Positions 1,954 through 61,069 of a stretch of DNA of 64,000 nucleotides are shown in pieces; the stretch's first letter is position 1; each line of letters opens with the position of its first letter. The notes under the pieces were generated by a model. It had not been told where the DNA came from, did not search any database, and saw only the letters and a program-made list of their open reading frames with translations. Origin of the DNA: PVC group bacterium (GTDB taxonomy: Bacteria > Omnitrophota > Gorgyraeia > B26-G9); NCBI GenBank assembly GCA_024231215.1, contig JAAEQR010000195.1:78755-142754 (forward strand). Reading direction: 5' to 3'. Made by a program: the position numbers and the translations under genes.

Positions 1954-2946
1954 ATGCGTTCATTTGGTTCTAATTCGCGACGTGGACAATCGCGGCAAAA
2001 ATCACATCATCATGGAAGATCACGACCGCAGCAACGTTCGCATATGTCGACGCGCAGGGTTGCTTCAGCTGATGAGAAAAAATTCATTGCCGGAACAGCA
2101 GTAGATCCGCATCCGCGTATTATTCTTGAGAAGGGCAGTGATGACTTGTCTGTTCGTGCACTTGATCTTATTTGCCCGATAGGAATGGGACAGCGTGCGC
2201 TTGTGGTGTCATCTCCTGGATTGGGTAAGACGACATTTTTAAAAAATATCTGTCATGCAGTATCAAACGGGTATCCCGAGATGAAGGTATATTGCGTTCT
2301 TGTTGATGAGCGCCCCGAAGAGGTGACGGATTTTACGCGGAGTGTGAATGCTAATGTATATTCTTCGTCCATAGATCATAGTCATGAAAGTCATATTAAG
2401 ATTGTTGATACTGTTATGCTGGAAGCTTTTAAGGAAGCGGTCGCAGGGCATAATGTGATGATATTGCTTGATTCGCTTACACGTCTGGCGCGAGTACATA
2501 ATACACAGCATCGAGGTAGTGGACGTACACTTTCCGGAGGAGTGGATGCTGGTGCACTTGAAGTACCACGTCGTATTTTTGGTGCTGCCCGGAATGTAGA
2601 AGGTTTGGGCTCGATAACGATTATTGCGACGATTTTGGTTGATACAGGCAGCTGCATGGATAATGTTATATTTGAGGAATTTAAAGGCACGGGGAATATG
2701 GAGCTGGTGCTTTCAAAGCAACTAGCAGCTAATCGGGTGTTCCCGGCAATCGATGTGTTAAAGAGTGGGACCAGGCGGGCGGAGCTTTTGTTTGAGCCGG
2801 AAGAATACAGACGCCTTGAATTGTTACGCCGGGGGATGGCTATGGCTAATAGTGTCTCTGCCATGGAAAAGCTGATAGATTTGCTTGGGAAATATCCGAA
2901 TAATAGCGATCTTTTAGAATCATTTAAGGATTTTAAAATTAGTTAA
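1954..2946 (+). CDS. rho: transcription termination factor Rho, ATPase core only, with a short Arg/His/Ser-rich N-terminus replacing the canonical NTD
   Basis: The P-loop SSPGLGKTT, catalytic VDERPEEV, Q-loop-like RGSGRTLSGGVD and Arg-finger region GTRRAELL align to E. coli Rho residues about 150-419. Only about 55 residues precede the ATPase domain. RBS AAGGAG sits 5 nt upstream, and an in-frame TAA lies at 1942-1944. Confidence 0.8.
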   Translation: MRSFGSNSRRGQSRQKSHHHGRSRPQQRSHMSTRRVASADEKKFIAGTAVDPHPRIILEKGSDDLSVRALDLICPIGMGQRALVVSSPGLGKTTFLKNICHAVSNGYPEMKVYCVLVDERPEEVTDFTRSVNANVYSSSIDHSHESHIKIVDTVMLEAFKEAVAGHNVMILLDSLTRLARVHNTQHRGSGRTLSGGVDAGALEVPRRIFGAARNVEGLGSITIIATILVDTGSCMDNVIFEEFKGTGNMELVLSKQLAANRVFPAIDVLKSGTRRAELLFEPEEYRRLELLRRGMAMANSVSAMEKLIDLLGKYPNNSDLLESFKDFKIS

Positions 2947-2955
2947 AGGGACTCT

Positions 2956-3528
2956 ATGAGAAAATATTTAAAAATATTTTACGTGACAATAGGACTAATT
3001 CTAATGCCCTCTGTTTGTTTTGCGGATGGAGGAGGACCAATATTATTGCTGATTAATGGATATGCTTTTAGTGTCGGGCAAATTTGGATTATGTCTGTGG
3101 AATTTGGCTATCTTTTTTTATGGTTAAAATCCTTATCTTTTTCGAAATGGAAAATTTTTAAAATAACATTTATTATGAATCTTCTTTCAACTTTGCTGGG
3201 TGCTATTTTATTTCCGTTATTGCTGGCGATCGTAACATTCCCTGGATTATTATATATGAATACTAAATGGGGCGGATTGCTGATGGCTCTTGGCACCTGG
3301 ATAGCGGGTGATAACTCGCCTAATTCTGAAGTTGCAATCGGTGCCGCAGTAGTTGGGTTTTTTATAACATTTATTTTAACGATATGGATTGAGTATAAAT
3401 ATCTTAAAAGATTATCGCGAAAAAAACAGATAGATTTTGGAAAGAATCTTTTCAAGCATTGTATTTATTTTAACATAATAAGTTATACAGGATTAATAAC
3501 TTTGTTTTTTGTTCTTCAAAGATTATGA
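2956..3528 (+). CDS. hypothetical polytopic membrane protein
   Basis: 190 aa with several hydrophobic segments. No family recognised. Confidence 0.5.
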   Translation: MRKYLKIFYVTIGLILMPSVCFADGGGPILLLINGYAFSVGQIWIMSVEFGYLFLWLKSLSFSKWKIFKITFIMNLLSTLLGAILFPLLLAIVTFPGLLYMNTKWGGLLMALGTWIAGDNSPNSEVAIGAAVVGFFITFILTIWIEYKYLKRLSRKKQIDFGKNLFKHCIYFNIISYTGLITLFFVLQRL

Positions 3529-3571: not shown

Positions 3572-4639
3572 GTGAAAACTTTACGCATAATAATTTCCGG
3601 GTTCTATATTTTATTGTTTTTTTTTAGCCTGGTTGTTTTTGCCCAAACGATTGAGAATCGTCCGATACAAGTTGATGCGCATTCTTCAGAATATAATTCT
3701 TTTCTTCATTACTACACTGATCTTATTCGCAAGTTCAAAGTAACAACCGTAGAAGATCAGGACTATGTGTATCTGGATCAGCTTGTTGAAAAAGCGCGTA
3801 GTCTTCGTACCGAAGAACCTTTAACTGTGGAATCCTGCAAAAAAATTTTAAAAGAACTTGAAAGAATTATTGATGAGGAGGAAGCGTTCAATATTGGTAC
3901 TTTAGCATATACTCGGGTTATTCTGCCGATAGGATGGAAGGGCAAGCACTGTTTTTATCGCTCGCTCATGTTTCATTCATTAGGGCAAGAGGCAGGAATA
4001 CCGATTTATGTTTTTGCTACTCCTAAAGGTAAAGCTTCAGAATTATATCATTTTGCGAATCGGGTAGATCTCGACGGTAAACATTCTATAAAGGATCAAC
4101 AGAGTCCGGATAATGAAGGAGATTTTTGTTATGAAGCAACAAGAGATGTTTTTTGTGAAGATGCATACTATTTGAAAAACTATAATTTTACCCCGGAAAT
4201 GATAGAAAAAGAAGTCTATGGCCGAAACTTAGATGATAATGCAACTATTGCTGCTTTTGTGGGACATCTTTATAAATATAAAAAAAAGGATAAAAGAAAG
4301 TTAGTTGAGCACTTATCTTTATTGCAGCCAATAGCAGATGTTCTCATGAAATACGGTGATGTTCCGACAGACTGGATTAGCGCGGGTAGTGCCTTGCGGA
4401 CGTATGCGGAGTATCGAGAGAAAAGTCTGGCTCCGCGTATGAGCGCTACGGAGGATAAATGGCGTCTTAGGGCTGAAATGCTCAAGATTATGGAACGGGC
4501 ATTGGATTGTTATAATAAAGCTTTATCAATGAATGATACGGACTGGATTATAAATAGATCGGTTCATCAATATAAGAAGTTCGTTGAAGATGTTAGGGAA
4601 TCAGTTGAAAAATATTATAGTCATAGTTGGAAGAAATAA
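3572..4639 (+). CDS. exported hypothetical protein with a transglutaminase-like Cys-core motif
   Basis: GTG start with RBS AAGGAGA. An N-terminal signal peptide is present. The segment GWKGKHCFYRSLMFHSLGQEAGIPIYV resembles the G-x-C-x-x-[FY]...GIP core of transglutaminase-like cysteine peptidases. Confidence 0.45.
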   Translation: MKTLRIIISGFYILLFFFSLVVFAQTIENRPIQVDAHSSEYNSFLHYYTDLIRKFKVTTVEDQDYVYLDQLVEKARSLRTEEPLTVESCKKILKELERIIDEEEAFNIGTLAYTRVILPIGWKGKHCFYRSLMFHSLGQEAGIPIYVFATPKGKASELYHFANRVDLDGKHSIKDQQSPDNEGDFCYEATRDVFCEDAYYLKNYNFTPEMIEKEVYGRNLDDNATIAAFVGHLYKYKKKDKRKLVEHLSLLQPIADVLMKYGDVPTDWISAGSALRTYAEYREKSLAPRMSATEDKWRLRAEMLKIMERALDCYNKALSMNDTDWIINRSVHQYKKFVEDVRESVEKYYSHSWKK

Positions 4640-7188: not shown

Positions 7189-7883
7189 GCGTAATTGATT
7201 TTTGGAAAAGTTTTGAGCATATAAAATATATATATTTATTTGGTACAATCAGTTTAGTTGTGTTTGCGTGTATTTTCTATGCTTGGCTTAGCAAGAAACA
7301 GACCGAGTGGCAGCGAAATGTTTTAGGACGATTAGGGCTTGTTTTTGTTAATCATCTGCGCGAAGAGATGTTTGAGGAGTTAAAGGGATTCAAGCTTTTT
7401 AATATAGGATATGCTAAAAAAATAACATATGTTTTAACAGGAGAGATGGAGGGCATATCCTGGAAGATTTTTGATTACCAGTATTCAGTAAAATCTGGAC
7501 GGCGCACAGCGACTTATATACAGACTGTTGCTTATACGGAGTTTTCCGGTTTAAGTCTTCCGAAGTTTTTAATAGAGCCGAATTCGTTTCTACATAAAAT
7601 TGGAGATGTGTTTAAAACTAATGATATTAAGCTTGAGGCGTTTCCTGTTTTTTTAAAACGATATACTTTGCGAGGAAAGGACGAGGTGCGTATTAAAAAA
7701 TTGTTTACTCCTCAAATAGTTGATTTCTTTGAAAAACGGAACCGAGCGGTTACGATTGAAGCAGAGGGTAGTAAAATAATAATTTATTATTTAAAAGTCA
7801 AAATTCCTTTGCCAGAGCTAAAAGATATCATTGTAGATGAGGCTGGAATTGTGAAAACTTTTGAAACACATTGTTCTAAATAA
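7185..7883 (+). CDS. hypothetical membrane-anchored protein
   Basis: 232 aa. Its ATGA start overlaps the stop of the upstream ORF. An N-terminal TM segment is present. Confidence 0.5.
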   Translation: MSVIDFWKSFEHIKYIYLFGTISLVVFACIFYAWLSKKQTEWQRNVLGRLGLVFVNHLREEMFEELKGFKLFNIGYAKKITYVLTGEMEGISWKIFDYQYSVKSGRRTATYIQTVAYTEFSGLSLPKFLIEPNSFLHKIGDVFKTNDIKLEAFPVFLKRYTLRGKDEVRIKKLFTPQIVDFFEKRNRAVTIEAEGSKIIIYYLKVKIPLPELKDIIVDEAGIVKTFETHCSK

Positions 7884-7902
7884 TCTATCTGTCACAAACC
7901 AG

Positions 7903-8046
7903 CTACTCTTTTGTATTAATATCTATTTCTTCCACTTCAAAATTAGTGCTTAATGCAAATATATTTTCTAAAGCCTGTTGTACATCTTCGGCTGTGAGTT
8001 TTTCCGTGCAGTTATTATGTCTTATTTTTACAATCAGCTCCTTCAT
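7903..8046 (-). CDS. small hypothetical protein (47 aa)
   Basis: Internal start MKELIVKIRHNN... is preceded by a strong RBS GGAGGGGGAAGCA-ATG. It is the only minus-strand small ORF with a convincing RBS. Confidence 0.35.
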   Translation of the reverse strand: MKELIVKIRHNNCTEKLTAEDVQQALENIFALSTNFEVEEIDINTKE

Positions 8047-8244
8047 TGCTTCCCCCTCCGTGGCAAAGATAGAATATAATATTATAAAGTAATTGCTATT
8101 GAAAAAAATATACAAGAATATTTTATTATATTCAAAAGTGATGTTTTGTCAAGAGTAAGATGTATACTTTTTGTGATTAATTTTTAAGCATTTTTTCCTT
8201 GACATGATTTATTGATTGTGATAGGTTTGGAGATGCAGAACAAA

Positions 8245-8337: not shown

Positions 8338-9171
8338 GTGAAAATATTAGAAAAAGAGCGTATTGCGGAAAACCTAACTAAATTTGTTATTAATGCGGAA
8401 CTTATTGCTGAAAAGGCCCTGCCGGGGCAGTTTATTATTCTTATGGGATGGAAAAAGGGCGAACGCATTCCGTTGACAATTGTCGATGCCGATAAAGAGA
8501 AAAAAACGATCACCATAATTTTTCAGGAAGTGGGATACACTACTAAATTATTAGGGAAGATGAATGCCGGGGATTCTTTGTATTCTCTGGTCGGACCTCT
8601 GGGAGAACCAACCCCGATTAAAAATTATGGCAAAGTTATTATTTTAGGTGGGGGAGTGGGTATTGCCGAGCTTTTGCCGGTTGTGCGTGCTTACAAAGAG
8701 GCAGGATGCGTGATTACCTCGATTCTTGGCGGTCGGACCTCTGATCTAGTAATTTTGCAGGATCAGATAAAAGAGTTTTCAGAAGAGTTATTTATAACTA
8801 CGGATGATGGATCATTAGGGGAAAAGGGGTTAGTAACCGATCCTTTAAAACAGTTGCTTGAGAAAAATTCAGATTATGGTTTAGTGTTTTGTGTCGGGCC
8901 GGTTCCGATGATGAGAGCGGTATCTAATGTGACGCGGCCATTTAAAATAAAGACGTTAGTCTGTCTTAATTCGATTATGATTGATGGCACAGGTATGTGC
9001 GGTGGTTGCCGGGTTACAGTGGGCAATAAAACAAAATTCACTTGCGTTGACGGACCTGATTTTGATGGACATGAAGTTGATTTTGAAGAGCTTATGGTTA
9101 GACAGAAAAGATTTATAACGCATGAAAAGCAGTCTAAATGTAAGCTAAACAAGTATGTAAAAGATGAATAA
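8338..9171 (+). CDS. nfnA: NfnA/SudB-like (PyrK-like) FAD + 2Fe-2S electron-transfer subunit
   Basis: 277 aa. GTG start with RBS AGGAG. PyrK-like FAD/NAD fold with the C-terminal cluster motif C-x8-CGGC-x...-C (CLNSIMIDGTGMCGGCRVTVGNKTKFTC). Confidence 0.7.
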   Translation: MKILEKERIAENLTKFVINAELIAEKALPGQFIILMGWKKGERIPLTIVDADKEKKTITIIFQEVGYTTKLLGKMNAGDSLYSLVGPLGEPTPIKNYGKVIILGGGVGIAELLPVVRAYKEAGCVITSILGGRTSDLVILQDQIKEFSEELFITTDDGSLGEKGLVTDPLKQLLEKNSDYGLVFCVGPVPMMRAVSNVTRPFKIKTLVCLNSIMIDGTGMCGGCRVTVGNKTKFTCVDGPDFDGHEVDFEELMVRQKRFITHEKQSKCKLNKYVKDE

Positions 9172-9211: not shown

Positions 9212-10609
9212 ATGGCAAAAATGAATCCAAAACAAGTTCCAATGCGGGAACAGCTGCCTAAGGATCGAATTAAAAACTTCAAAGAAGTTCCTTGTGGCTA
9301 TTCAGATGAAGAAGCAGTTATTGAAGCCAAAAGGTGTTTGCAGTGTAAAAACCAGCCGTGTGTATTAGGTTGCCCGGTAGAGATAGATATCCCGGGATTT
9401 GTTAAACTAATCGCCGAAGGAGATTTTCCCAGGGCAATAAAGAAGATGAAGGAGACGAACAGTCTTCCTGCGATATGCGGTAGGGTATGTCCTCAGGAAG
9501 ATCAGTGCCAGAAGGTATGTGTTGTTGGAAAGATGGGAGATCCGGTAGCGATTGGGCGTTTAGAAAGATTTATTGCGGATTGGGAGGCAAAGCAAGCTAA
9601 TATAGAGCTTCCTGAAATAAAAGCGCCTACCGGTAAAAAAGTAGCTTGTGTTGGAGGAGGTCCGGCTGGACTTACAGTTGCCGGAGAGTTGGTAAAGCTC
9701 GGGCACAGCGTGACTATATTTGAGGCATTGCATGAGTTGGGAGGAGTTTTAGTTTATGGGATTCCGGAATTCAGGTTGCCGAATAGTATTGTAGAAAGAG
9801 AAGTGGAATATATCCATTCTCTGGGAGTAGAAATTAAAAAATCTTTTATTGTCGGAAAACTAAAGACTATTGATGAATTTTTAGAAGAATTTGATGCTGT
9901 ATTTGTGGGAACAGGCGCTGGGCTTCCTTGGTTTATGGATCTTCCCGGCGAAAATTATAACGGCATATATTCGGCAAATGAGTATCTTACTCGGTCAAAT
10001 TTGATGAAGGCATATCTTTTTCCGGAATACGATACCCCGATTGAAAGGGGAAAGCAGGTTGCGGTAATCGGTGGGGGTAATGTGGCAATGGATTCAGTAA
10101 GAACCGCATTGCGTCTTGGTGCTGCGAAGGCTATGATTATATATAGAAGGTCGAAAAAAGAGATGCCGGCAAGGTTCGAAGAAATACACCATGCTGAGGA
10201 AGAAGGAGTTATTTTTGAATTTTTAACTTTACCGATTGCTTATCATGCCGATGATCAAGGCGGGGTTAAGGAAATGGAATGTTTAAAGATGGAATTGGGT
10301 GAGCCTGATGCTTCTGGAAGAAGACGTCCGGTACCTGTGGAAGGGTCTAATTTTAGAATTCCAGTGGATGTGGTGGTTGTGGCGATCGGTAACAGCCCGA
10401 ATCCTTTAGTTCCAGCTACTACTTCAGGACTTGAGATCGGAAAAAAAGGCAATATAGTAGTTGATGCGACTACTGGAAAAACCAGTAAAAAAGGAGTCTT
10501 TGCTGGAGGAGATATTGCAACCGGTGCGGCTACGGTGATTTCTGCGATGGGTGCAGGAAAAATCGCTGCTAAAAATATAGATGATTACTTAAAAACAGAA
10601 CAATGGTAA
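9212..10609 (+). CDS. nfnB: NfnB/SudA-like, GltD-family NAD(P)H oxidoreductase subunit
   Basis: 465 aa. Two Cys clusters (CLQCKNQPCVLGCP, CGRVCPQEDQCQKVC). Rossmann motifs VACVGGGPAGL and VAVIGGGNVAMD. It is a paralog of gltD at 378..1823. Confidence 0.75.
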   Translation: MAKMNPKQVPMREQLPKDRIKNFKEVPCGYSDEEAVIEAKRCLQCKNQPCVLGCPVEIDIPGFVKLIAEGDFPRAIKKMKETNSLPAICGRVCPQEDQCQKVCVVGKMGDPVAIGRLERFIADWEAKQANIELPEIKAPTGKKVACVGGGPAGLTVAGELVKLGHSVTIFEALHELGGVLVYGIPEFRLPNSIVEREVEYIHSLGVEIKKSFIVGKLKTIDEFLEEFDAVFVGTGAGLPWFMDLPGENYNGIYSANEYLTRSNLMKAYLFPEYDTPIERGKQVAVIGGGNVAMDSVRTALRLGAAKAMIIYRRSKKEMPARFEEIHHAEEEGVIFEFLTLPIAYHADDQGGVKEMECLKMELGEPDASGRRRPVPVEGSNFRIPVDVVVVAIGNSPNPLVPATTSGLEIGKKGNIVVDATTGKTSKKGVFAGGDIATGAATVISAMGAGKIAAKNIDDYLKTEQW

Positions 10610-15302: not shown

Positions 15303-16217
15303 TTGGATGGTGTCATGAAGAATAGTGTTGAGGTACGCCGTATATTTAGAATTATACTTTTTTTACTGTTTCTGGAGATAATCTGCCGGATTGGCGGAAT
15401 TATTGTTCTTGAGGGATATGAACAGCGTAATAGATTAGATATGCACAATAAACAACTTTACCGCATTCTTTGTATTGGGGAATCAGTGACATTATCCACG
15501 GTTACTCCGTCTTATCCTGAATTACTTGAGCAAGTGCTGAATAGACTTACGCGAACACAAAAAGTAAAGGTTATAAATAAAGGTATTGCCGGAGCATCTA
15601 CAGAAACAGTTTTTAAATCGTTGGATAAGATGCTGAATAAATATGAACCTGACTTGGTTGTGCTGATGCTGGGAGTAAATGACGCAAAGATGATTGTTAG
15701 CCGCGAACAGCTTTTTGTGGTGCGTTGGGAGCGTTGCTTGAATAAGCTTAAAACATATCGTTTATTTAAGCAACTAATTAAGCAGGCGCTTTTCCGGATG
15801 CAGCATACTAAAGAAGAAAATATTATTGTTGATCAGAATGATGCGGTAATTAGGCAGCCTCCGCGTCCAACATCTTTAGAAGAGCAGGCGTTGTTTTTAT
15901 CTGCAGTCCGAGAGCCTCAGGCAGTAACACTTAATAATTTTCGTAAAATCGCCGGGAAAATTTTTGGATACGGGAGTAGACTGGTTATAATGCAATATCC
16001 GCTGGTTGATATTGAGCTTTTGCAAGAACATTTAAAAGAATATCCTCAGATTATTTTTGTTGAAAATAAAGATAATTTTACCGAAGCTTTGCGATTTGCT
16101 TCTATGGAAGAGTATTTTATCGATCTTTTTGCCGCTGAATTTGGCCATTGCACAGTAGCGGGGAATGAATTGATTGCCGAAGAATTGGCCAAAGCCATAA
16201 AAAACAACTGTTTCTAA
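15303..16217 (+). CDS. SGNH/GDSL-hydrolase-fold protein with an N-terminal TM anchor, partner of the MBOAT (AlgJ/PatB/DltD-like)
   Basis: 304 aa. GESVT block near the N-terminus, a GVNDA block, and a C-terminal D..H pair. It lies immediately downstream of the MBOAT gene. Confidence 0.65.
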   Translation: MDGVMKNSVEVRRIFRIILFLLFLEIICRIGGIIVLEGYEQRNRLDMHNKQLYRILCIGESVTLSTVTPSYPELLEQVLNRLTRTQKVKVINKGIAGASTETVFKSLDKMLNKYEPDLVVLMLGVNDAKMIVSREQLFVVRWERCLNKLKTYRLFKQLIKQALFRMQHTKEENIIVDQNDAVIRQPPRPTSLEEQALFLSAVREPQAVTLNNFRKIAGKIFGYGSRLVIMQYPLVDIELLQEHLKEYPQIIFVENKDNFTEALRFASMEEYFIDLFAAEFGHCTVAGNELIAEELAKAIKNNCF

Positions 16218-16249
16218 CTTATTTATTGCCAACGCATTATATGTTTGTA

Positions 16250-16284
16250 TTGACAAAATCTGTTATTTATGTTAAATTCTTATT
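16250..16284 (+). promoter_or_regulatory. candidate sigma70-type promoter for the car-pur-pyr array
   Basis: TTGACA-17nt-TAAATT. A roughly 190-nt AT-rich leader follows before carA. Confidence 0.3.
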
Positions 16285-16477
16285 AATTCAGGAACAAAGG
16301 TGTTCACCGAAAGGGAGAGCGTCTTTTTTTTATGCCTTTTTGCGTAAAAAATATGATTTAAAAAAAGACTTTTTAAATAATTAATATTGTATTATAATTA
16401 GATAAATTATAATCCCTTCAGATTTCAGGACTTCTTAGAAATCCGCAAGATAGAACATAAACATAAATATAATTTTA

Positions 16478-17584
16478 ATGGATACCCTTGTGTGTAATCA
16501 TAAGCGACAAAGAGCAAAACTTGCGTTAGAAGATGGCAGAATATTTCCCGGATTTTCTTTTGGTGCTACGGGAACTGCTTTGGGAGAAGTTGTCTTTAAT
16601 ACCAGCTTAGCTGGATACCAGGAAATACTCACAGATCCTTCCTACAAAGGTCAGATGGTAACAATGACCTATCCTCTTATTGGTAATTATGGTGTAAATG
16701 AAGAAGATGTTGAATCACATAAACCTTTTGTTGAAGCATTTATTGTAAAAGAATGTAGTCGTATTGCCAGTAATTGGCGTTCTACGATGACCTTAGATGA
16801 ATATCTTAAAAAGAATAATATTATTGGTATCGAAGGGGTAGATACACGTGCGATTACCCGTCATGCAAGATTGCAGGGAGCAATGAAGGCGGTGCTTTCC
16901 ACCGAAGACTTAGATGATAAAAGTTTAGTTGCAAAAGCAAAAGCTTCAACTGGACTGGTGGGAGTGGATTTAGTCAAAGAAGTAACTTCTTCTGAAATCA
17001 AGCATTGGACAAAAGAAGGTAAATATAAAGTTGTTGTTTTAGATTGCGGAGTAAAACTGAATATTTTAAGAGAATTAGCAGGACTTGATTGCCAGGTGAT
17101 TGTTGTTCCGGCATCTACTACAGCAGAAGAGATCCTGGCTTTAAATCCTGACGGGCTTATGCTTTCTAATGGCCCGGGAGATCCAGCTGCTGTAACATAT
17201 GTTGTTGAGACGGTGAAACAATTAATCGGAAAACTGCCGATGTTCGGCATTTGTCTTGGCCATCAGATGTTGGGACAGGCTTTAGGCGGAAAAACATATA
17301 AACTTAAGTTTGGCCATCATGGGGGTAATCAGCCGGTAAAAGATCTTAAAACAGGCAAGATCGATATTAGTGTGCAGAATCATGGATTTTGCGTGGATAT
17401 CGATTCATTAAATAAAGATGATATCGAAATTACACATATTAATCTTAATGATCAGACTTTAGAGGGAATTCGGCATAAAAAACTGCCGATTATCTCAGTG
17501 CAGTTTCATCCGGAAGCTTGTCCTGGTCCGCATGATTCAAAATATTTATTTAAACAATTTATGGAAATGATAGAAAATGCCTAA
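16478..17584 (+). CDS. carA: carbamoyl-phosphate synthase small (glutaminase) subunit
   Basis: 368 aa. [35 protein letters not shown] aligns to the E. coli CarA N-terminus. GATase triad region GICLGHQ. Confidence 0.9.
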
Positions 17585-28657: not shown

Positions 28658-29377
28658 TTGAAAGGGGTTTTGAAGTTGAATATTAAATCACATGAAGCAT
28701 ACATAGATACATTAAGTAAAATAAGTAAGGCGATAACAAGCGATCTTTATTTAGAAGACGTTTTAAAACTTGTGGTTACCTTGACCGCGAATGTTATGAA
28801 CGCAAAAATTTGCGCTTTGTGGCTTTTGGATGAAAAGACTCAGGAATTAAAAATTAAAGCAACACAAGCGATGAGCAGTGAATATTTAAAAGAGCGTACA
28901 TTAAAAGTTGGCGAGGGAATTGTCGGGTTAGTCGCGAAAAGCAAGAAGCCGATTGCGATACTGGATATTTTGAAAGATAAAAGGTATAAAGAGAAGAAAT
29001 TAGCTAAGAAAGAAAAACTTGTTTCTATGCTTAGTATTCCGATGCTTGTAAAGAGTCGTGTGATTGGAGTTGTTAATTGTTATACAACCGCGAAGTATAA
29101 ATTTACTAAAAGCGACATCAATCTTTTAAGTACTGTTTCCAATCAGGCTGCTGTAGCTATAGAAAATACAGAGTTAATTGTTAAGACAAAAGTTGTGCAG
29201 GAAGAATTAGACGCGCGAAAAAAAGTGGAAAAAGCAAAAGGGCTCTTAATGAAGGAACAGAATATTACTGAGCAGCAAGCGTACAATATCCTCCGCAAGT
29301 CAAGTATGAATAAACGCATTTCCATGAAAGATATTGCCGAGGCAATAATCCTATCTTCTGAAATCAAGAAAAAATAA
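28658..29377 (+). CDS. GAF-domain + ANTAR-domain RNA-binding regulator
   Basis: 239 aa. N-terminal GAF-like region and C-terminal ANTAR helix set (EQQAYNILRKSSMNKRISMKDIAEAII). Start codon uncertain; TTG or ATG at 28658-28692. Confidence 0.65.
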   Translation: MKGVLKLNIKSHEAYIDTLSKISKAITSDLYLEDVLKLVVTLTANVMNAKICALWLLDEKTQELKIKATQAMSSEYLKERTLKVGEGIVGLVAKSKKPIAILDILKDKRYKEKKLAKKEKLVSMLSIPMLVKSRVIGVVNCYTTAKYKFTKSDINLLSTVSNQAAVAIENTELIVKTKVVQEELDARKKVEKAKGLLMKEQNITEQQAYNILRKSSMNKRISMKDIAEAIILSSEIKKK

Positions 29378-29537
29378 TCATCGAAAAATACTGAAATATT
29401 TTATTGTTGCTTTTTTTGTAAAATTTTTTTTTGCAAAAAAGTAATTTTTTCCTTGTAATCAATTCCCGTTTTAGTATATAGTATACATATAAGAAAAAAA
29501 TGGGGGTTAATCAGTAAAACTGATTTAATATATAAAA

Positions 29538-39461: not shown

Positions 39462-39539
39462 CGGGGCGTGGCTCAGCTTGGCTAGAGCGCCTGGTTTGGG
39501 ACCAGGAAGTCACAGGTTCAAATCCTGTCGCCCCGACCA
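39462..39539 (+). tRNA. tRNA-Pro (TGG)
   Basis: Cloverleaf read by eye. Acceptor CGGGGCG/CGCCCCG. Anticodon loop tTTGGGa. Encoded CCA. Confidence 0.85.
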
Positions 39540-39596
39540 TTTAGTTTATAGTCAATATTAATAGAAACATTTTACTAGTGACTATAAACTAATCAT

Positions 39597-39673
<77 letters not shown>

Positions 39674-39749
39674 TCTATGAAGTTACAAGTTACAGATTAT
39701 GAGTGACAAGTTGTAATTTGTCATTTGTAATTCGTAACTATTTTAATAT

Positions 39750-39827
39750 GGTGGGTGTAGCTCAGTTGGTTAGAGCACATGATTGTGGTTCATGATGTCG
39801 TGGGTTCGAATCCCATCATCCACCCCA
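39750..39827 (+). tRNA. tRNA-His (GTG) with G-1
   Basis: Extra 5' G. Anticodon loop tTGTGGt. Discriminator C. Encoded CCA. Confidence 0.85.
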
Positions 39828-40991: not shown

Positions 40992-41363
40992 ATGGTTGAA
41001 AAAAGAAAGCATACGCGTTTAAATGCGACGATCGATGGGGAATTTCAGGTTAAAGATAGTGGAATTGCCGGGATGATGATGCTTTCTAATGTTAGCTGGG
41101 AAGGATTTAAAGCAACTTTAAATCAACCAGTGTCTCAAGGCAAGACTATTGAGTGTGAGATGCGTTTTCCGCAGAGTATTATGCCATTCTTCATAGCTGG
41201 TAAAGTAATCTGGATTAAAGAAAAAGGCACAGGTTATGATGCAGGCATCCAATTAGAAACAATTGATTCACTTGAACGTCAGAGACTGCTGGATCATGCA
41301 TTTGAAACTTCAACTTTAGAAAAAGTAGCTGTAAATATTCCGCAAGAAGAAATTCAACCCTAG
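40992..41363 (+). CDS. stand-alone PilZ-domain protein (c-di-GMP receptor candidate)
   Basis: RKHTR (RxxxR) and NVSWEG ([D/N]xSxxG) motifs are present. Confidence 0.65.
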   Translation: MVEKRKHTRLNATIDGEFQVKDSGIAGMMMLSNVSWEGFKATLNQPVSQGKTIECEMRFPQSIMPFFIAGKVIWIKEKGTGYDAGIQLETIDSLERQRLLDHAFETSTLEKVAVNIPQEEIQP

Positions 41364-41426
41364 CCCGCCTTTTTACTATATTAATTAAAATTAATATGTC
41401 TGTGTGAATTAAGGAAGTATTGCCGA

Positions 41427-41967: not shown

Positions 41968-44844
41968 ATGGGGCGTAAGAATTATAGTACGGTAATTCTG
42001 GCAACAATATTGTTTTTATTTTACGTTGTTCCTATCATATGTGCCCAGCCGGAAACATCTCTAAAAGAATTGTCTGCTGATATTCCCACCGAAGTATACC
42101 AAAAAATAAGAAACTTATATTCAAAAGATGCCAATGTGCGGGCTGAAGCAGCTTATAACCTTGGGCAAATGCAGGATGCGGCTGCGGCTGCAGTTCCATT
42201 ACTGGTGGAAATGTTGGGCGATACTACCGGCGTAAACTGGAAGTCTACACCCCAGGGGATTGTGTCCGGGGTTAATGTGGTTGGGAATGAAGCTACGCAG
42301 GCTTTGATTAAAATCGGAAGTGTTGCGGCTGTGCCGCTAATAGAGGTTATTCATAAAGGCAGAAAGATTGAAAAACGTAATGCAGTCCGAGCTTTAGGGC
42401 GGATCGGGGATCTTCAGACCGTAGAATTGCTTTCGGCGTTATTGAAAGAAGAGAAGGCTTTAGTGCGCAGATATGCGGTTGTAGCTATGGGAGAAGCTAA
42501 AAGCTTTTATGCTGTGCCGGCATTACTTTCTGCGCTAAGGAGCGATGATGATGTTACAGTCCGGCGTTATGCGGCGTTAGCTTTAGGTGGAATAAAAGAC
42601 AGTCGGTCTGGTTTTGGTTTGATCGAGGCGTTAAAAGACGATAGTGCTGTGGTCCGTACACAGGCAGCCTGGGCTTTGGGAGAGTTGAGAAATAAACAGG
42701 CGGCAAAGATGCTGCTTCCATTTTTAAATGATAAAGATCTGAATATGCGTATAGAAACAGTTCACGCTTTAGGTAAAATTGCGGATAAAATTGCGTTGCA
42801 GCCGTTGATGGGATTATTGAAAGACCAAAATAAAGTGATTCAGCAAGCTGCGGCAAAATCTTTAGAAATGATCAAGCATCCTCAGACTGTTGAAGTTTTA
42901 ATCAAGGCACTTAAGAGTGATGATTTAAAAATGCGCAGAGAGGCTGCTTGGATACTAGGTGGTGTAAATGATCAGAGAGCAATAAAACCATTACTGAGTG
43001 TATTTAATGATAAAGATTCTAGGGTAAGAAGCTATGCGGCACGGGCATTGGGCAAGATGAAAGCTAAGCAGGCAATAGATCCATTAATCAAACTTTTAAA
43101 GGATAATGATTCGTTAGTTAGTAATTATGCCTCCTGGGCTTTAAGCAAGATGAACCCAGCTGATACAATGACGCCGTTAAAAGCTTTGTTGAAAGATGCT
43201 CAGCCTTTAGTTCGTAAAATGGCAGCTATGGTTTTGGGGAATATTGGAAGTAAACAGGCGATGGCACCCTTGCTTTTGGCAATGGATGATCAGGCGTGGT
43301 TTGTGCGCTACTATGCAGCTTGGGCTTTGGGTAGAATAAAGGAGCCCGGAGCTGTTCCTAAGCTTATTCGGGCTCTTAAAGATGAAAATTTTACAGTAAG
43401 GCAATATGCGGCTTGGGCTTTGGGTAATATAGGAGATCCAAAAGCTTTGGAAGCTTTAGGTGCGGTGATGGATGATCAGTATTGGACGGTACGTTATAGT
43501 GCAGCCAGAGCATTAGGGGTATTAAAGGATGCGCGTGCTTTAAACGATTTGTTTAAAGTCTTAAAAGATGATCATTGGCTTGTGCGTTATCATTCTGTAA
43601 ATGCGTTGGGGCAAATAGGAGATAAAAAGGCATTGCCTTATTTGAGAGAGGTTTCTAAGGATAAGAATACTTCTGTGCGTTATCAAGTGGCGCGATCTTT
43701 GGGTTGGATTGGAAATCCGCGTGCCTTGAATACGCTTACCGGTCTTTTAAAAGATAGTAAAAGGTTGGTTCGTTATCATGCTGCCGAAGCATTAGGAGAT
43801 ATAGGAGATAAAAAAGCATTAAATTCTTTGTTGCAGGCTTCTAAAGATAGTCATCCTGCGGTGCGATATAAGGCGATATGGGCTTTAGGACAATTCAAAG
43901 ATATGCGTGCGGAAAAAGCGGTCATTAATGCTTTGAAGGATAAGCATTGGGCAGTACGTTATCACGCGGCAAAAGTTTTAAGTGACTCAAACAGTGCGTT
44001 TGCGGCAAAGGGATTGATTATTGCCTTAAAAGATAAAGATGCCTCAGTTAGAGAAACCGCTGCTTTGGCTTTGGTTACGGTTAAAAGCGATGAGACATCC
44101 ACGTTTTTGGCTGATGCCTTAGAAGACAAAGATCCATTGGTGAGAAGATATATTGGGGAGATAATAGATGAAAGAAAGGGGCCGCCGATATCTAAGCCTT
44201 CTGATATTAATGCTGATATACAGATAAGTATAGATAATTCTATGGAGGATGTTATTGAGGAAATTCAGGGGAAAGAATCATTTGGATCATTGATTATTGC
44301 TTTAAAAGATGAAAATTCTTCTGTGCGTAGACACGCTGCATCGGAATTGGCCCAATTAAAGGATAACCGATCAATAAAACCACTGATTGAGGCATTAAAA
44401 GACACTGATCCCGGAGTACGCTATCAGGTTGCCTTGGCTTTAGGAGAGATAAAGTCGCTGGAGTCTGTGCCGGGGCTGATTATTGCTTTGAAAGATAAAG
44501 ATACGTCTGTGCGTTACCAAGCTGCCTTGGCCTTATCCGAACTAAAGGATCCTCGTTCTGCGTTACCCTTAACCAAAGCGCTTAAAGATAACCATTGGTC
44601 TGTACGTTATCAGGCGGCCTTAGCTTTAGGAGAGATTAAAGATATTGCTTCTATTGACGGCCTGATTGATGTTTTATCTGACGACGATACGTTTGTAAGG
44701 GAGAATGCTGCTTCTGCTCTGGAGACTATAGTCGGTATAACCTTTCATCAGGATCAGGCTAAGTGGCGTGCCTGGTGGGAAGAATATAAAGAGAATATGC
44801 CTGAGAAAGAGAAACAAGCTTTAAACCCGTCCTCTGAAAACTAG
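41968..44844 (+). CDS. large exported HEAT-repeat (PBS-lyase-like) protein with more than 25 repeats
   Basis: 958 aa with a signal peptide. Reiterated ...VRxxAAxALGxIGD... units. Confidence 0.8.
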   Translation: MGRKNYSTVILATILFLFYVVPIICAQPETSLKELSADIPTEVYQKIRNLYSKDANVRAEAAYNLGQMQDAAAAAVPLLVEMLGDTTGVNWKSTPQGIVSGVNVVGNEATQALIKIGSVAAVPLIEVIHKGRKIEKRNAVRALGRIGDLQTVELLSALLKEEKALVRRYAVVAMGEAKSFYAVPALLSALRSDDDVTVRRYAALALGGIKDSRSGFGLIEALKDDSAVVRTQAAWALGELRNKQAAKMLLPFLNDKDLNMRIETVHALGKIADKIALQPLMGLLKDQNKVIQQAAAKSLEMIKHPQTVEVLIKALKSDDLKMRREAAWILGGVNDQRAIKPLLSVFNDKDSRVRSYAARALGKMKAKQAIDPLIKLLKDNDSLVSNYASWALSKMNPADTMTPLKALLKDAQPLVRKMAAMVLGNIGSKQAMAPLLLAMDDQAWFVRYYAAWALGRIKEPGAVPKLIRALKDENFTVRQYAAWALGNIGDPKALEALGAVMDDQYWTVRYSAARALGVLKDARALNDLFKVLKDDHWLVRYHSVNALGQIGDKKALPYLREVSKDKNTSVRYQVARSLGWIGNPRALNTLTGLLKDSKRLVRYHAAEALGDIGDKKALNSLLQASKDSHPAVRYKAIWALGQFKDMRAEKAVINALKDKHWAVRYHAAKVLSDSNSAFAAKGLIIALKDKDASVRETAALALVTVKSDETSTFLADALEDKDPLVRRYIGEIIDERKGPPISKPSDINADIQISIDNSMEDVIEEIQGKESFGSLIIALKDENSSVRRHAASELAQLKDNRSIKPLIEALKDTDPGVRYQVALALGEIKSLESVPGLIIALKDKDTSVRYQAALALSELKDPRSALPLTKALKDNHWSVRYQAALALGEIKDIASIDGLIDVLSDDDTFVRENAASALETIVGITFHQDQAKWRAWWEEYKENMPEKEKQALNPSSEN

Positions 44845-44966
44845 TCTGAATATTTCCCTAGATTCGATTTGTTTATTATTGCTTTTTATTGTATAATAAT
44901 AGACTATACCATGTAATATCCGTGGGTTATAGGTGTTGATTGGGAATATCTATCAGAAGGGATTGT

Positions 44967-56141: not shown

Positions 56142-57632
56142 ATGAAAAAACGAAGTAGCGGAATATTAATGCATATTACATCTTTACCTTCACCGTTTGG
56201 AATTGGTGATATGGGAGATGGTGCTTATAGATTTGTGGATTTTCTGGAGCAGTCAAAACAAAAATCATGGCAGGTACTTCCGTTTAACCCGACAAGCGGG
56301 ATTAACGGACATTCACCGTATAGCAGTATGTCTGCTTTTGGGGCCAATATATTATTGATCAGCCCGGAATTGATGCTAAAAGACGGACTGCTTAGCGAAA
56401 AAGATGTTGATACCTGTCTGGATTCAAACGGTGTAGTTGATTATCCAAAAGTTTTAGAATTCAAAAACAGATTATTTAATATCGCGTTTAAAAAATTTCA
56501 AACTATTGAAGATAAACAGGGGTATACGGATTTTTGCGCGGAAAATGCATATTGGCTGGAAGATTTTGCGATGTTTATTGCTTTTAAAGAGTATTTCCAG
56601 GATAAACTTTGGAGCGAATGGCCGCAGGATATCCGGGACAGAAATCAGCAGGCAGTGATCAATTTAAAAGCGCAGATGAACGGCAAGATTGAAAAAGAGA
56701 AATTTCTGCAGTATTTATTTTTTAAACAGTGGTTTGCGCTAAAAAAATATGCGAACCAAAAAGGCGTAGAGATAATCGGTGATATTCCGATCTATGTTAC
56801 CTATGATAGTGTGGATGTATGGCAGGATCCTTCAGTATTTAAGCTGAACGCGGAAAAAGAACTGAAATACTTAGCAGGGGTGCCGCCGGATTATTTTAGT
56901 AAGACCGGACAATTATGGGGTAATCCTGTCTATGATTGGGATGCGTTGGCTAAAGATAAATACGCCTGGTGGATAAAAAGAATAGAACACAATCTTAAAT
57001 TGTTTGATTGGGTAAGGATTGATCATTTCCGAGGGTTTGTTGATTATTGGCAGGTACCGCTTGGAGAGAAGACAGCGATTGGCGGGGAATGGCAAAAAGC
57101 ACCGGCTTTTGATTTTTTTGAGACTATATTACAGAGATTTCCTGATGCGCCGATTATTGCCGAGGACCTGGGGATTATTACCGATGAAGTCAGGGAAGCA
57201 ATTAAACATTTTGGTTTCCCAGGGATGAAGATATTGATATTTGCGTTTTACGAAGATAAAAAAGACCATCCGTACTTGCCGGATAATTATATAGACAATT
57301 GTGTGGCTTATACCGGAACACATGATAATAATACAGTCAAAGGCTGGTTTGAAAATGAAACACAAGAAGCAGATAAAAAACGTTTGTTTAAATGTCTGGG
57401 CAGGGAAGTGTCCGTAGATGAGCTGCCTTGGGCAATGATTAAATTATTGATGGAATCTAAAGCGAATATGGCTCTTTTTCCGATGCAGGATATTCTGGGT
57501 TTAAAGCAGGAAGACCGCATGAATTTACCCGGGACTTTAGACGGAAACTGGCAATGGCGGCTTAAGCCTGAGCAGTTAACTCCGCAAATCACTGCGCAAT
57601 TAGCGGAAATCACGCTATCTACCAGCAGATAA
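56142..57632 (+). CDS. malQ: 4-alpha-glucanotransferase (GH77)
   Basis: GILMHITSLPSPFGIGDMG N-terminus and a GH77 core. RBS GGAGAG. Confidence 0.85.
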   Translation: MKKRSSGILMHITSLPSPFGIGDMGDGAYRFVDFLEQSKQKSWQVLPFNPTSGINGHSPYSSMSAFGANILLISPELMLKDGLLSEKDVDTCLDSNGVVDYPKVLEFKNRLFNIAFKKFQTIEDKQGYTDFCAENAYWLEDFAMFIAFKEYFQDKLWSEWPQDIRDRNQQAVINLKAQMNGKIEKEKFLQYLFFKQWFALKKYANQKGVEIIGDIPIYVTYDSVDVWQDPSVFKLNAEKELKYLAGVPPDYFSKTGQLWGNPVYDWDALAKDKYAWWIKRIEHNLKLFDWVRIDHFRGFVDYWQVPLGEKTAIGGEWQKAPAFDFFETILQRFPDAPIIAEDLGIITDEVREAIKHFGFPGMKILIFAFYEDKKDHPYLPDNYIDNCVAYTGTHDNNTVKGWFENETQEADKKRLFKCLGREVSVDELPWAMIKLLMESKANMALFPMQDILGLKQEDRMNLPGTLDGNWQWRLKPEQLTPQITAQLAEITLSTSR

Positions 57633-57731
57633 AAACTCTCCTTTAATTTGCGAACACACCTAAAATATGGTATACTTTATCAGATTTTTACCTAATTTTT
57701 AATGATGTATCTTGTTTAACAATAACGATTT

Positions 57732-59708
57732 ATGGGTATAATGGCAATGAAATCAAGAAGATTAAAATTCATAAACAAACTTATGGCAGTTGTTTTGATC
57801 CAGCTGTTTTTAGGGGGGAGCTCTGCCTGGTGTGGGGAGATTAGTACTTTGTCCCCTCAGATTTTCCTGCAAAATAATTCCTTACTAGATGTTTTTACCC
57901 AAAAGACAGAAGCTGCTATTTTTAGCGTGCCGCATGATGCGCAGTTATTGATGGTGCATGTGAATGAGAGGTGTGATCCTGATTATTATTGGACTAGCAC
58001 AAAGACAGCTAATAACCGGCTTATAGAAATGTTTTCTATTCAGCCTTTAATTTTTGCTTTTCCGGATTCTATGTTTGGCGACAGCTTTGATGCAAAAGAT
58101 ATATATGTGAATACTAATAATGCAGAGATTGTGCCTCCGCAGGGAAGTGTGTCTGAAGAAGAATGTTATGAGTTGACAAGAGGCCTCAATTCTAATTCGT
58201 TTATTCTTACCGGCGGCGCCTGGGGAGAATGTCATTATCAGGCATTTAAGGTTTTGTTGCGTAAGGCAATTAGGGAATGTGCTTCAACTCCACAGATAAT
58301 TTTGCCTAAAGATGCTATTTATGTTTTGTATAATGATTACAAGATGAAGGGTGAGTTTTCTACTCGACCTTTGACAGAGTGCGGAGATCGAAGGTTTTCA
58401 TCAGGATTATGGGACTATTATAAAGCTTTAGATGAATTGGCCGGAGAATATGAAATTTGGGATATAAGCGAGCAGAAGAAGGATCTTTTGCAGAAAAAAG
58501 GCGAAGATTCTAAAGTGAAAATTTTTCTGGTTGATTCTGTAAAGACAGTTGAAAAGGCAATTGTTAATAGTGAAAACCTTAGTTTTAATTCGTTAGAGAA
58601 ACAAGAAAGAAGTATAGTAGATCATATATTGGCAGCATTTGGCACAACACATAAAGACCTGCAATGGAAAAAAGATAAAGGATCGTTTAATATTGCAAAT
58701 ATTGTGCTAACGGATGAAAATAAAGATGTTGTGAGTCAAGTTTTTTTTCCTCTTGAGGAGAAAACTATTGCTTCTGGAAATGTCATGATTCTAGCGTATA
58801 ATGATCTGCCTCTATATTTATGGTTTATTAATGACCAGAAGGAGGCAGAGTATATAAATTTGACATTTTATTATTCTTCTTTATCAAGCAATAAGATTTT
58901 GTTGGGAATGGGAAAAGATATTGTTGATATTTTTGAGCGTCAGGAAATTGTTCGTATGCATGGTTTTGATGCGGGGAATCAGTTTGTTTATATTAATATG
59001 GATCCTAGTAGTAATAGTTATAAGGAGGTAACTATTGGTAATTACAATCAATGGCGGGAAGAATATCTTAATTTGATTTGGATTTTTCCTGGAGTGTGGG
59101 GGCCTGATAGTTTTTCAAGTCGGCTTATTGCTGGAGCAACCGCAGAATTAACAAAGCCGGGGATGAAGGTTTTGGTTATTGGTACAGGTGCGGGTGTAGA
59201 GGCATATATTGCGGCAAATAAAGGTGCTTATGTTGATGCAGTGGATATAAGAAAGATGGCTGTGGAGAATACTAAGATTACTTGTAGCAATACGGATTTT
59301 TCACATAGAGTTAATGCGTTTGTAAATGATATGTATAACGGGTTGGGTAAGTATGATTTGATTGTCTGGAATATGCCGCATTATTGGCCTGATTTACGAT
59401 TGGATGGTTATGCAAAATCTACCAATACTACTGATAAGAATGGACAGATATTATCTCGATTTGCACAAGGAGTTACTGAGCATCTTACAATTAATGGTAA
59501 AGTGGCAATAGTTAATAGCGCTGGAGATCAACTTAAAGTAATTATTAAAAGTTTATTGGAGCAGACTTCCGGATTGAAAATAACACAGATGATGGGAGAG
59601 GAAGATACTCCTTCTCGAATATATATTTTAGAACAGGGCGTAATGGCATTTGAGGAAAATGACAAGATAAAGGCATATAGTGCAGAATTGGTAGGAGAAG
59701 CAATATAA
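57732..59708 (+). CDS. exported or membrane-anchored protein with a C-terminal class-I SAM methyltransferase-like domain bearing an NPPY-type motif IV (NMPHYW)
   Basis: N-terminal signal/anchor (KSRRLKFINKLMAVVLIQLFLGG). Cys-containing central region of about 400 aa. C-terminal VLVIGTGAGVE ... VDAVD ... NMPHYW. Start ambiguous among three ATGs at 57732-57747. Confidence 0.5.
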   Translation: MGIMAMKSRRLKFINKLMAVVLIQLFLGGSSAWCGEISTLSPQIFLQNNSLLDVFTQKTEAAIFSVPHDAQLLMVHVNERCDPDYYWTSTKTANNRLIEMFSIQPLIFAFPDSMFGDSFDAKDIYVNTNNAEIVPPQGSVSEEECYELTRGLNSNSFILTGGAWGECHYQAFKVLLRKAIRECASTPQIILPKDAIYVLYNDYKMKGEFSTRPLTECGDRRFSSGLWDYYKALDELAGEYEIWDISEQKKDLLQKKGEDSKVKIFLVDSVKTVEKAIVNSENLSFNSLEKQERSIVDHILAAFGTTHKDLQWKKDKGSFNIANIVLTDENKDVVSQVFFPLEEKTIASGNVMILAYNDLPLYLWFINDQKEAEYINLTFYYSSLSSNKILLGMGKDIVDIFERQEIVRMHGFDAGNQFVYINMDPSSNSYKEVTIGNYNQWREEYLNLIWIFPGVWGPDSFSSRLIAGATAELTKPGMKVLVIGTGAGVEAYIAANKGAYVDAVDIRKMAVENTKITCSNTDFSHRVNAFVNDMYNGLGKYDLIVWNMPHYWPDLRLDGYAKSTNTTDKNGQILSRFAQGVTEHLTINGKVAIVNSAGDQLKVIIKSLLEQTSGLKITQMMGEEDTPSRIYILEQGVMAFEENDKIKAYSAELVGEAI

Positions 59709-59752: not shown

Positions 59753-60997
59753 ATGGAAAAAGTTATTCTGGTTACAGTCAAACTTACAGATAGATCCGAG
59801 GCGTGGTCATTAGAAGAGCTTAGTGATGAACTGCGGCTTCTTACCAAAACCGTATGCGCGGATATTGTTGCCGAAATTACCTGCAATCGCAAGTCACCAG
59901 ATCCTTCCTTATATATAGGGAAGGGAAAAGTCAAAGAAATTGCCACAATCGTAAAACAGGAAAAGGCCCAGACAGTTATTTTCAATAATGACCTTTCCCC
60001 TACCCAACAGCGAAATTTAGAAGAATTGCTCAAAGTGAAGACTATTGATCGCACTCAGTTGATCCTGGATATCTTTGCGCGTCATGCCAAAAGTCAGGAA
60101 GGAAAGACCCAGGTTGAGTTGGCCCAATTACAATATTTATTACCCCGATTATCCGGAGAGGGAATTGCGTTGTCTCGGTTGGGCGGAGGTATTGGTACTC
60201 GCGGTCCGGGGGAGCAAAAACTGGAGATTGACCGTCGGCGGATCAGGAAACGCGTAGTTCATTTAAAAGAAGATATTAAGGCTATGGGGCTCCGACGTTT
60301 TGCTTTGAGGAAAAAGCGGATTGATAATGCTTTACCCACAGTTGCATTGGTGGGGTATACGAATGCTGGCAAATCTACGTTACTTAATTCTCTTACCGGT
60401 GCAGGTGCTAAAATGAAAAATGAGATGTTTAGTACTCTTGATCCGATCACTCGCAAATTTGTACTTCCTGATAGCGGCCAAAATATTTTATTTTCAGATA
60501 CAGTTGGATTTTTGCATAAATTACCGCATCATTTGATTGACGCGTTTAAAGCTACGTTGGAGACGGTAGCCGAGGCTGATTTACTGCTTATTGTTTTAGA
60601 TGCTGCCAGTGAAAAGATGCAGCAGCATAGCGATGCAATATGGGAAGTCTTATCTGAGCTTAAAGCCCAGGATAAACCGGTTATTTATGTGTTAAATAAG
60701 ATTGATAATCTAGATAATGATACTCTTCTGGAGCAGTTTAAACTTAAAATAGAAAAAAGCATTTCGATTTCAGCTAAACAGAAGATTAATCTGGAGATGC
60801 TTATTAAACAGATTGAGAGTAGCTTATTTGACTTGATTACAGAAGTAAACGTGTTTATCGAGCACTCTAAAATGAAGATACTTAATTATATCCATGAACA
60901 TGGCAAAGTTGATGTTTGTGAATATACAGAAAACGGCGTTCAAATACAGGCAAAACTACCGATTCCGCTAGCCAAGAAAGTCCTCTCCGAAATATAA
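59753..60997 (+). CDS. hflX: GTPase HflX
   Basis: N-terminal HflX domain and G-domain motifs GYTNAGKST, DTVGF and NKID. Confidence 0.85.
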   Translation: MEKVILVTVKLTDRSEAWSLEELSDELRLLTKTVCADIVAEITCNRKSPDPSLYIGKGKVKEIATIVKQEKAQTVIFNNDLSPTQQRNLEELLKVKTIDRTQLILDIFARHAKSQEGKTQVELAQLQYLLPRLSGEGIALSRLGGGIGTRGPGEQKLEIDRRRIRKRVVHLKEDIKAMGLRRFALRKKRIDNALPTVALVGYTNAGKSTLLNSLTGAGAKMKNEMFSTLDPITRKFVLPDSGQNILFSDTVGFLHKLPHHLIDAFKATLETVAEADLLLIVLDAASEKMQQHSDAIWEVLSELKAQDKPVIYVLNKIDNLDNDTLLEQFKLKIEKSISISAKQKINLEMLIKQIESSLFDLITEVNVFIEHSKMKILNYIHEHGKVDVCEYTENGVQIQAKLPIPLAKKVLSEI

Positions 60998-61011
60998 ATT
61001 TTTTGTAAAAC

Positions 61012-61046
61012 CCTCTTGACAGGCATTTATTTATTTGATATATTAG
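61012..61046 (+). promoter_or_regulatory. sigma70-type promoter of the hrcA operon (TTGACA-17-TATATT)
   Basis: Direct reading of the sequence. The -10 abuts the CIRCE element. Confidence 0.6.
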
Positions 61047-61069
61047 CACTCTGAATGCGAGAGTGCTAA
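61043..61069 (+). promoter_or_regulatory. CIRCE operator (HrcA binding site)
   Basis: TTAGCACTC-N9-GAGTGCTAA, a perfect match to the CIRCE consensus. Confidence 0.9.

Follow-up and report, generated by a model that had tools for sequence, protein, structure and literature searches.

A conserved Rho-family ATPase with an arginine-rich tail in place of the N-terminal RNA-binding domain

The window, i.e., the whole 64-kb stretch of DNA under analysis, carries on its + strand a Rho-family gene at positions 1954-2946, which encodes a protein of 330 aa (plus stop) devoid of the Rho N-terminal domain (NTD). A GltD-like gene located 5' of this short rho ends at 1823, and the resulting gap of 130 nt confirms the preliminary description of this locus on that point. 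Its view that the start is well supported was likewise confirmed in the sequence, where a Shine-Dalgarno AAGGAG (1943-1948, + strand) stands 5 nt before the ATG at 1954 and is overlapped by an in-frame TAA (1942-1944). Across 25 family loci, the AAGGAG and the ATG are invariant and the start region, namely GTAAGGAGTATAT-ATG, is near-invariant, the Shine-Dalgarno lying inside the stretch GTAAGGAGTAT(A/G)T-ATG. The exact protein, deposited at NCBI from a 506,687-bp contig, is a 300-aa “Rho” starting at Met31; because the tail, the ribosome-binding site (RBS) and the start codon are conserved family-wide, Met1 is favoured over Met31, and the public annotation is probably truncated with respect to a true product of 330 aa. 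Further upstream, a promoter-like TTGACA-18 nt-TATAAT sequence (1846-1875, + strand), which is a consensus match only, agrees with the consensus at 12/12 positions and lies 78 nt 5' of the ATG; no promoter match of comparable strength is conserved in related loci. In about 15 Thermodesulfovibrionia-type loci (L003-L029), a 5' leader of ~110 nt is conserved and holds a GGGAG...CUCC inverted repeat, SD-like on one arm and anti-SD-like on the other, from which the window's own leader diverges. A regulatory RNA in this leader was considered and rejected, as Rfam gave no match there, RNAalifold gave no consensus structure, and the covariation of a hairpin drawn by hand was not above shuffled controls. 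Rfam matches in the 64-kb window are limited to three tRNAs; the tRNA cluster at 39462-39827 comprises tRNA-Pro(TGG), tRNA-Arg(TCT) and tRNA-His(GTG).

On the 3' side, an ORF of 190 aa (2956-3528) with hydrophobic stretches, possibly a membrane protein, starts 10 nt past the rho stop and is followed by an ORF of 355 aa (3572-4639); neither has a Pfam, PADLOC or PHROGs match, nor is either conserved beside rho elsewhere. Two GltD-like genes (Fer4_20 + Pyr_redox_2) and a DHODB-type Fe-S/NAD-binding subunit, at 378-1823, 8338-9171 and 9212-10609, suggest electron-transfer enzymes resembling NfnAB or sulfide dehydrogenase. Beside the family loci, no conserved rho-type synteny, such as rpmE or prfA, was found, and the recurring neighbours of the short rho are Omnitrophota-specific only, e.g., a conserved ORF of ~80 aa, with no assigned function and not ribosomal protein L31, which is found directly 3' of the gene in 10 Omnitrophota loci (e.g., L046, 7011-7253).

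The ORFs of at least 150 aa in the window are nearly all on the + strand, and the coding strand contains 15% C vs. 24% G; the GC skew amounts to +0.14 to +0.32 in every 2-kb bin, against 0 to 0.19 in related loci. An explanation of the loss of the primary RNA site by C-poor transcripts was rejected, and a C-poor coding strand is not a family trait, because the other family loci are not so skewed as the window. On the + strand, only 8% of 78-nt windows have C>G, and C>G patches occur at 1745-1937, 7831-8129, 16162-16493, 29242-29428, 41283-41418, 44780-44912, 57541-57734 and 60908-61062; several of the longer ones coincide with the ends of genes or with intergenic gaps, the places in which one would look for rut-like sites, although this placement may be fortuitous.

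When the 330-aa protein was compared with Pfam, ATP-synt_ab (residues 67-271) was the only match and neither PF07497 nor PF07498 was found at E<=1; this was the check called for in the preliminary description, and it bears out the claim that the ORF lacks the Rho NTD. With the Rho models of NCBIfam, residues 39-325 pair with profile positions about 128-414 only, the score being above the cut-off for NF006886 (361.5 vs. 315) and below it for TIGR00767 (341.2 vs. 509.45). Rho chains of the PDB align with the short Rho from their residue ~140 only. In a tblastn search with E. coli (Ec) Rho, for which a 419-aa sequence served as query, Ec 137-417 corresponded to window 2095-2928 at 47.7% identity. 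Similarity is thus confined to the C-terminal part of Rho, as first described, although it begins not at about residue 150 but at the connector (Ec ~130-137). The missing part corresponds to Ec 1 to about 129, i.e., both NTD subdomains, whereas the connector between the NTD and the C-terminal domain (CTD) is kept: residues 38-65 (2065-2148, + strand) are homologous to this linker in E. coli Rho (about Ec 130-155), and a conserved pattern, (D/E)E..F..GT...P..RI.LE.GS, follows the basic tail across loci. For the surroundings, four Rho NTDs served as tblastn queries, the targets being the window and 82 loci. No Rho NTD match appeared anywhere in the 64-kb window (E<10), and no NTD/OB homologue or canonical Rho was found within about 6 kb of the best 80 of 161 loci.

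Ahead of the connector, residues 1-37 (1954-2064, + strand; MRSFGSNSRRGQSRQKSHHHGRSRPQQRSHMSTRRVA) form a basic tail rich in Arg, Ser, Gln and His and predicted to be disordered, of which residues 9-35 constitute the basic segment RRGQSRQKSHHHGRSRPQQRSHMSTRR. In an AlphaFold2 model built on a 22-sequence alignment, the RecA core is confident and residues 1-64 have a pLDDT below 50, which suggests that they are disordered; no more than 37-65 residues, of low confidence, stand ahead of the CTD. The family consensus of the tail reads MSSfGxNSRRGkSRPQQRSxxpARRV, with a net charge of about +7. Over 77 proteins, the median tail length is 27 aa in the Thermodesulfovibrionia-type clade and 39 aa in the Omnitrophota-type clade, and in both the tails contain about 20% Arg and 1-3% Asp+Glu for a median net charge of +7, with conserved Arg positions. 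A replacement segment that is basic and looks disordered, as originally noticed in this one protein, is therefore a family-wide character as to the basic tail, the disorder being predicted (pLDDT <50). In the window, the tail contains a diverged tandem duplication of a 10-codon unit (1984-2043, + strand), GQSRQKSHHH / GRSRPQQRSH; the first unit (1984-2013) is an insertion unique to this genome, beside its apparent source (2014-2043), and some other family members have the tail motif repeated two to four times. Given the charge, the few acidic residues and the conserved Arg, loading of RNA on the hexamer through the Arg-rich tail, as proposed in the preliminary description, is plausible.

Residues 66-330 (2149-2943, + strand) correspond to the RecA-type ATPase domain of the Rho CTD together with the C-terminal helices, and the best PDB matches of the AlphaFold2 model by Foldseek are Rho chains, over 261-285 columns. 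On the + strand can be recognised (i) the Walker A / P-loop SSPGLGKTT (2209-2235), with K92 and T93 conserved and Gly89 replacing Ec K181, (ii) the catalytic Glu119 and the Arg-valve Arg120 (2308-2313), equivalent to Ec E211 and R212, (iii) the Walker B ILLDS (2461-2475), where Asp173 is Ec D265, (iv) the Q-loop (2509-2547; Ec 278-290), where R191 and S194 occupy the positions of K283 and T286, (v) the R-loop DTGSCMD (2641-2661; Ec 322-328), with Cys234 where E. coli has K326, and (vi) the arginine finger Arg274 (2773-2775), equivalent to Ec R366. The early statement that the ATPase motifs are present stands for the P-loop, the catalytic Glu, the Q-loop and the Arg finger, but has to be qualified for the R-loop, whose Lys is Cys234, and for K181, which is Gly89. 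All of the 78 family proteins compared have, in Ec numbering, K184, T185, E211, R212, D265, R269, R353 and R366. The Q-loop of the secondary RNA site reads GRTLSGG in place of GKVLTGG, and neither K283R nor T286S is unusual in a set of 146 other Rho representatives. The two other substitutions set the family apart from these representatives, position 181 being Gly in 78/78 family members vs. K/R in 146/146, and position 326 being K/R in 144/146 of them vs. a mixture in the Thermodesulfovibrionia-type proteins (Ala in 27, Arg in 4, Asn in 4, Lys in 1 and Cys in 1); Omnitrophota-type proteins have Arg there in 41/41 cases. Because the R-loop Lys and K181 are lost, the coupling between RNA and ATPase may differ from that of E. 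coli Rho. The bicyclomycin pocket, following the residue list of Moreira et al. (2024; PMC11347177), is kept at 11/11 positions in the window protein, namely P180, K184, D210, E211, R212, D265, S266, R269, L320, T323 and G337. Models of the FliI, T3SS and F1-type ATPases reached at best 91.5 bits against cut-offs above 379.

Searching 5.8 billion protein clusters brought up more than 120 clusters of about 320 aa, 72-87% identical and all with PF00006 only, the named ones among them coming from Nitrospirota or Thermodesulfovibrionia metagenome-assembled genomes (MAGs). A scan of loci, with one genome per GTDB species, gave 161 relatives, and the best 80 among them were retained. Among these best 80 of 161, BMS3Abin06 is the closest relative, L002-L039 are 71-85% identical and mostly labelled as Thermodesulfovibrionia or Nitrospirae MAGs (L036 being a partial gene cut by the locus end), and L040-L081 are 55-62% identical and mostly labelled Omnitrophota; L049, from a MAG labelled SAR324, stands at 69%. 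By submitter labels, MAGs assigned to Desulfobacteraceae, Desulfococcaceae, SAR324 and KSB1 also carry the family, which was met only in metagenome-assembled genomes. One MAG, JADHUV01, holds two family copies, L009 (1647-2636) and L027 (6001-6948), which share 81% and 77% identity with the query; the tail motif is duplicated in one of the two, and the pair reflects true paralogy or else mixed binning. Close relatives that all have a normal NTD at the locus had been named at the outset as something that would speak against the observation; instead, the relatives share the NTD-less architecture, in more than 120 clusters and in the best 80 of 161 loci, and the loss is a conserved family character, not a local deletion. 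These loci come from independent assemblies, with an upstream stop 3 codons away in most, and for the great bulk of them the open frame extends no further than a few to a few tens of codons 5' of the start, which leaves no room for an NTD; in two loci, the upstream frame lacks a start codon and the start is uncertain. The pN/pS ratio (Nei-Gojobori, 27 genes) rises from 0.18 in the core through 0.21 in the linker to 0.61 in the tail; by this estimate the core is under purifying selection and the tail is much less constrained.

Outside the family, the nearest sequences in a search of 1.84 billion representatives are other short forms, followed by canonical or atypical Rho at about 50% identity; the canonical representatives closest to the query are P0131 (Desulfotomaculales) and P0125 (Gemmatimonadota). 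P0121, from a Sericytochromatia MAG, and P0122 are members of the NTD-less family. In a CTD tree, which is a rough neighbour-joining (NJ) tree without support values, the Thermodesulfovibrionia-type proteins, P0121, the Omnitrophota-type proteins and P0122 form one clade of 23 tips, all NTD-less, whose neighbours are OB-only (“Type 4”-like) and PVC-style atypical Rho. From the sequence comparisons taken together, a conserved family of NTD-less Rho is recognised that spans at least two phyla.

On balance, and with moderate confidence, this selectively maintained family is read as a ring-shaped RNA translocase of the Rho family, in which the Arg-rich tail that replaces the NTD would capture RNA. 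The RecA-type ATPase would assemble as a ring and move along RNA. Six tails, adding up to a net charge of about +42 per hexamer, would project from the face of the ring that normally holds the NTD crown, where naked RNA would be caught by electrostatic attraction, with little preference for sequence or pyrimidines, and passed on to the secondary site at the centre, i.e., the Q-loop channel. ATP hydrolysis would then drive 5'-to-3' translocation, which would displace RNA polymerase or pull RNA off DNA or proteins. A comparable arrangement exists in DEAD-box helicases, where basic tails tether RNA. Arg-rich regions are reported to raise the RNA affinity of Rho from Mycobacterium tuberculosis and Micrococcus luteus (Moreira et al. 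2024; PMC11347177). Against this mechanism count the loss of the R-loop Lys/Arg in most of the lineage, the family-wide Gly at K181, and a tail much less constrained than the core. According to the same source, an E. coli NTD deprived of its first 27 residues, among which are its seven basic ones, loses RNA binding, and the working definition of a functional Rho requires an RNA-binding domain (PMC11347177).

Whether the protein acts alone or beside another Rho can be argued from its conservation and its surroundings. It is tentatively considered possible, though short of probable, that the NTD-less protein is the only Rho in uncultured Thermodesulfovibrionia and Omnitrophota, where termination would proceed without an OB-fold primary site and an Arg-rich crown would capture RNA. 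Identities of 72-87% within the family vs. 78-89% for Desulfotomaculales Rho, the strong start signal and the presence in Omnitrophota, whose genomes are often small, speak in favour of a sole Rho. It is rather doubtful, albeit seriously to be weighed, that the gene is an accessory paralogue beside a canonical rho, with a specialised or regulatory role, e.g., in R-loop or RNA surveillance or within mixed rings. Published surveys point in that direction, since they attribute a Rho with an RNA-binding domain to every species outside five phyla, never met a species with an ATPase-only Rho alone, and report shorter second copies of Rho (Group B); so do the proximity of the family to OB-only and PVC-type atypical Rho in the rough NJ tree, the lack of conserved rho-type synteny, the MAG with two family copies (L009, L027), and a patchy distribution by MAG label that looks more like that of an accessory gene. 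However, MAG labels are unreliable, the window's own protein being labelled “PVC group,” neither the window nor the ~6 kb around each of the best 80 of 161 loci holds a canonical Rho, and conservation is as tight as that of a housekeeping Rho within a class.

The remaining explanations concern the nature of the gene itself. That it should be a Rho-derived ATPase recruited elsewhere, no longer acting on RNA or in termination, would fit the disappearance of the primary RNA site, the loss of the basic R-loop residue in the Thermodesulfovibrionia-type lineage and the Gly at K181; it is nonetheless quite improbable in view of the conserved Q-loop, Arg finger, Arg valve and whole bicyclomycin pocket, the R-loop Arg in 41/41 Omnitrophota-type proteins, FliI/T3SS/F1 scores far under the Rho scores, and no match to a defence-system or phage family. 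On this last point, PADLOC and PHROGs gave weak P-loop matches only, and a defence or phage origin was rejected; a mobile-element origin was also rejected, a scan of viral contigs having given canonical-like Rho only, several at contig edges. Very improbable too is a split Rho, whose RNA-binding module would be encoded separately and dock onto the ATPase ring: no NTD ORF lies in the 64-kb window or beside the best 80 of 161 loci, the conserved basic tail sits precisely where an NTD would join, and the architecture is stable across two phyla. As for an assembly or annotation artefact, or a decaying pseudogene, the NCBI record starting at Met31 (300 aa) does make the annotation uncertain, but this explanation is effectively refuted by the family data, i.e., the same architecture in the best 80 of 161 loci from independent assemblies, purifying selection on the gene, and an invariant RBS and start, preceded in most loci by a stop 3 codons away.

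The NTD of Rho is regarded as indispensable. The primary RNA site that it holds chooses C-rich rut sequences, the inhibitors Psu, Rof/YaeO and Hfq all target it, and models of termination in which Rho is bound to the polymerase have it touching both RNA polymerase and NusA. A family that strong purifying selection maintains in at least two phyla, and that keeps the motor while dropping the NTD, shows that the motor can be useful without this domain. If it is the sole Rho of its hosts, it would be a natural Rho without the domain to which recognition of rut and contacts with RNA polymerase and NusA are currently attributed; the contribution of the primary site, and the way in which terminators are selected in the absence of pyrimidine recognition, could then be studied in a natural case. 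A paralogue, in turn, would reveal that Rho-type RNA translocases have a second role still to be explored. In both cases, the scoring of Rho presence in genomes would change, because NTD-less proteins score as Rho with an NCBI model and carry the annotation of ordinary Rho.

Compared with known systems, the family has a RecA ATPase domain 47-55% identical to that of canonical Rho (“Type 1,” as in E. coli) and shares with it Walker A/B, catalytic Glu, Arg valve, Arg finger, Q-loop, bicyclomycin pocket and connector, but is devoid of both the helical subdomain (PF07498) and the OB-fold primary RNA site (PF07497); where canonical Rho has K181 and the R-loop Lys, the window protein has Gly and Cys. 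Four Rho types, all with an RNA-binding domain, are distinguished by Moreira et al. (2024; PMC11347177), where a functional Rho is defined by the RNA-binding and ATPase domains together, a definition adopted by a 2026 survey. With “Group B” / “Type 4” / NF041509 paralog_Rho2, the family has in common a shortened Rho with a conserved ATPase domain; these forms lack the helical bundle but keep the OB domain (PMC11347177), whereas the NTD-less family lacks the OB domain as well. The NF041509 model includes OB sequence, because its profile aligns with canonical Rho starting from residue 72; the window protein matches profile positions 72-358 only and scores 307.9 vs. a cut-off of 628, under which five other short forms and P0023 also fall. 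Neither NF041509 nor the published Rho types cover the NTD-less family, because all of them keep the OB fold. “Type 2” Rho (M. tuberculosis, M. luteus, Bacteroides) likewise exhibits an Arg-rich, disordered N-terminal region of biased composition, but there it accompanies an RNA-binding domain that is intact, whereas in the NTD-less family a far shorter tail of 27-40 aa replaces the domain; the window protein has the Arg-rich tail and lacks the domains that normally accompany it.

By definition, the window protein fits the single-domain “Rho-like” class of Moreira et al. (2024), since it consists of the ATPase domain only; sequences of this class are treated as non-functional in that study (PMC11347177), whose Table 2 has no Nitrospirota among the species without functional Rho. 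The survey covered 2730 genomes from RefSeq (PMC11347177), and the NTD-less family was probably not sampled there because it was met only in MAGs. No description of an NTD-less, Arg-tailed Rho family was found in the literature searched; the family occurs in many uncultured bacteria. The closest parallels in architecture are P0128 (Hydrogenedentes), P0130, which sits on closed contigs of 4.4-4.9 Mb, and P0137, all three of which combine a basic, low-complexity, Arg-rich tail with the connector and the Rho CTD; being 46-47% identical, lying outside the family clade (NJ) and keeping K181 and K/R326, they differ from the family and may represent independent losses of the NTD.
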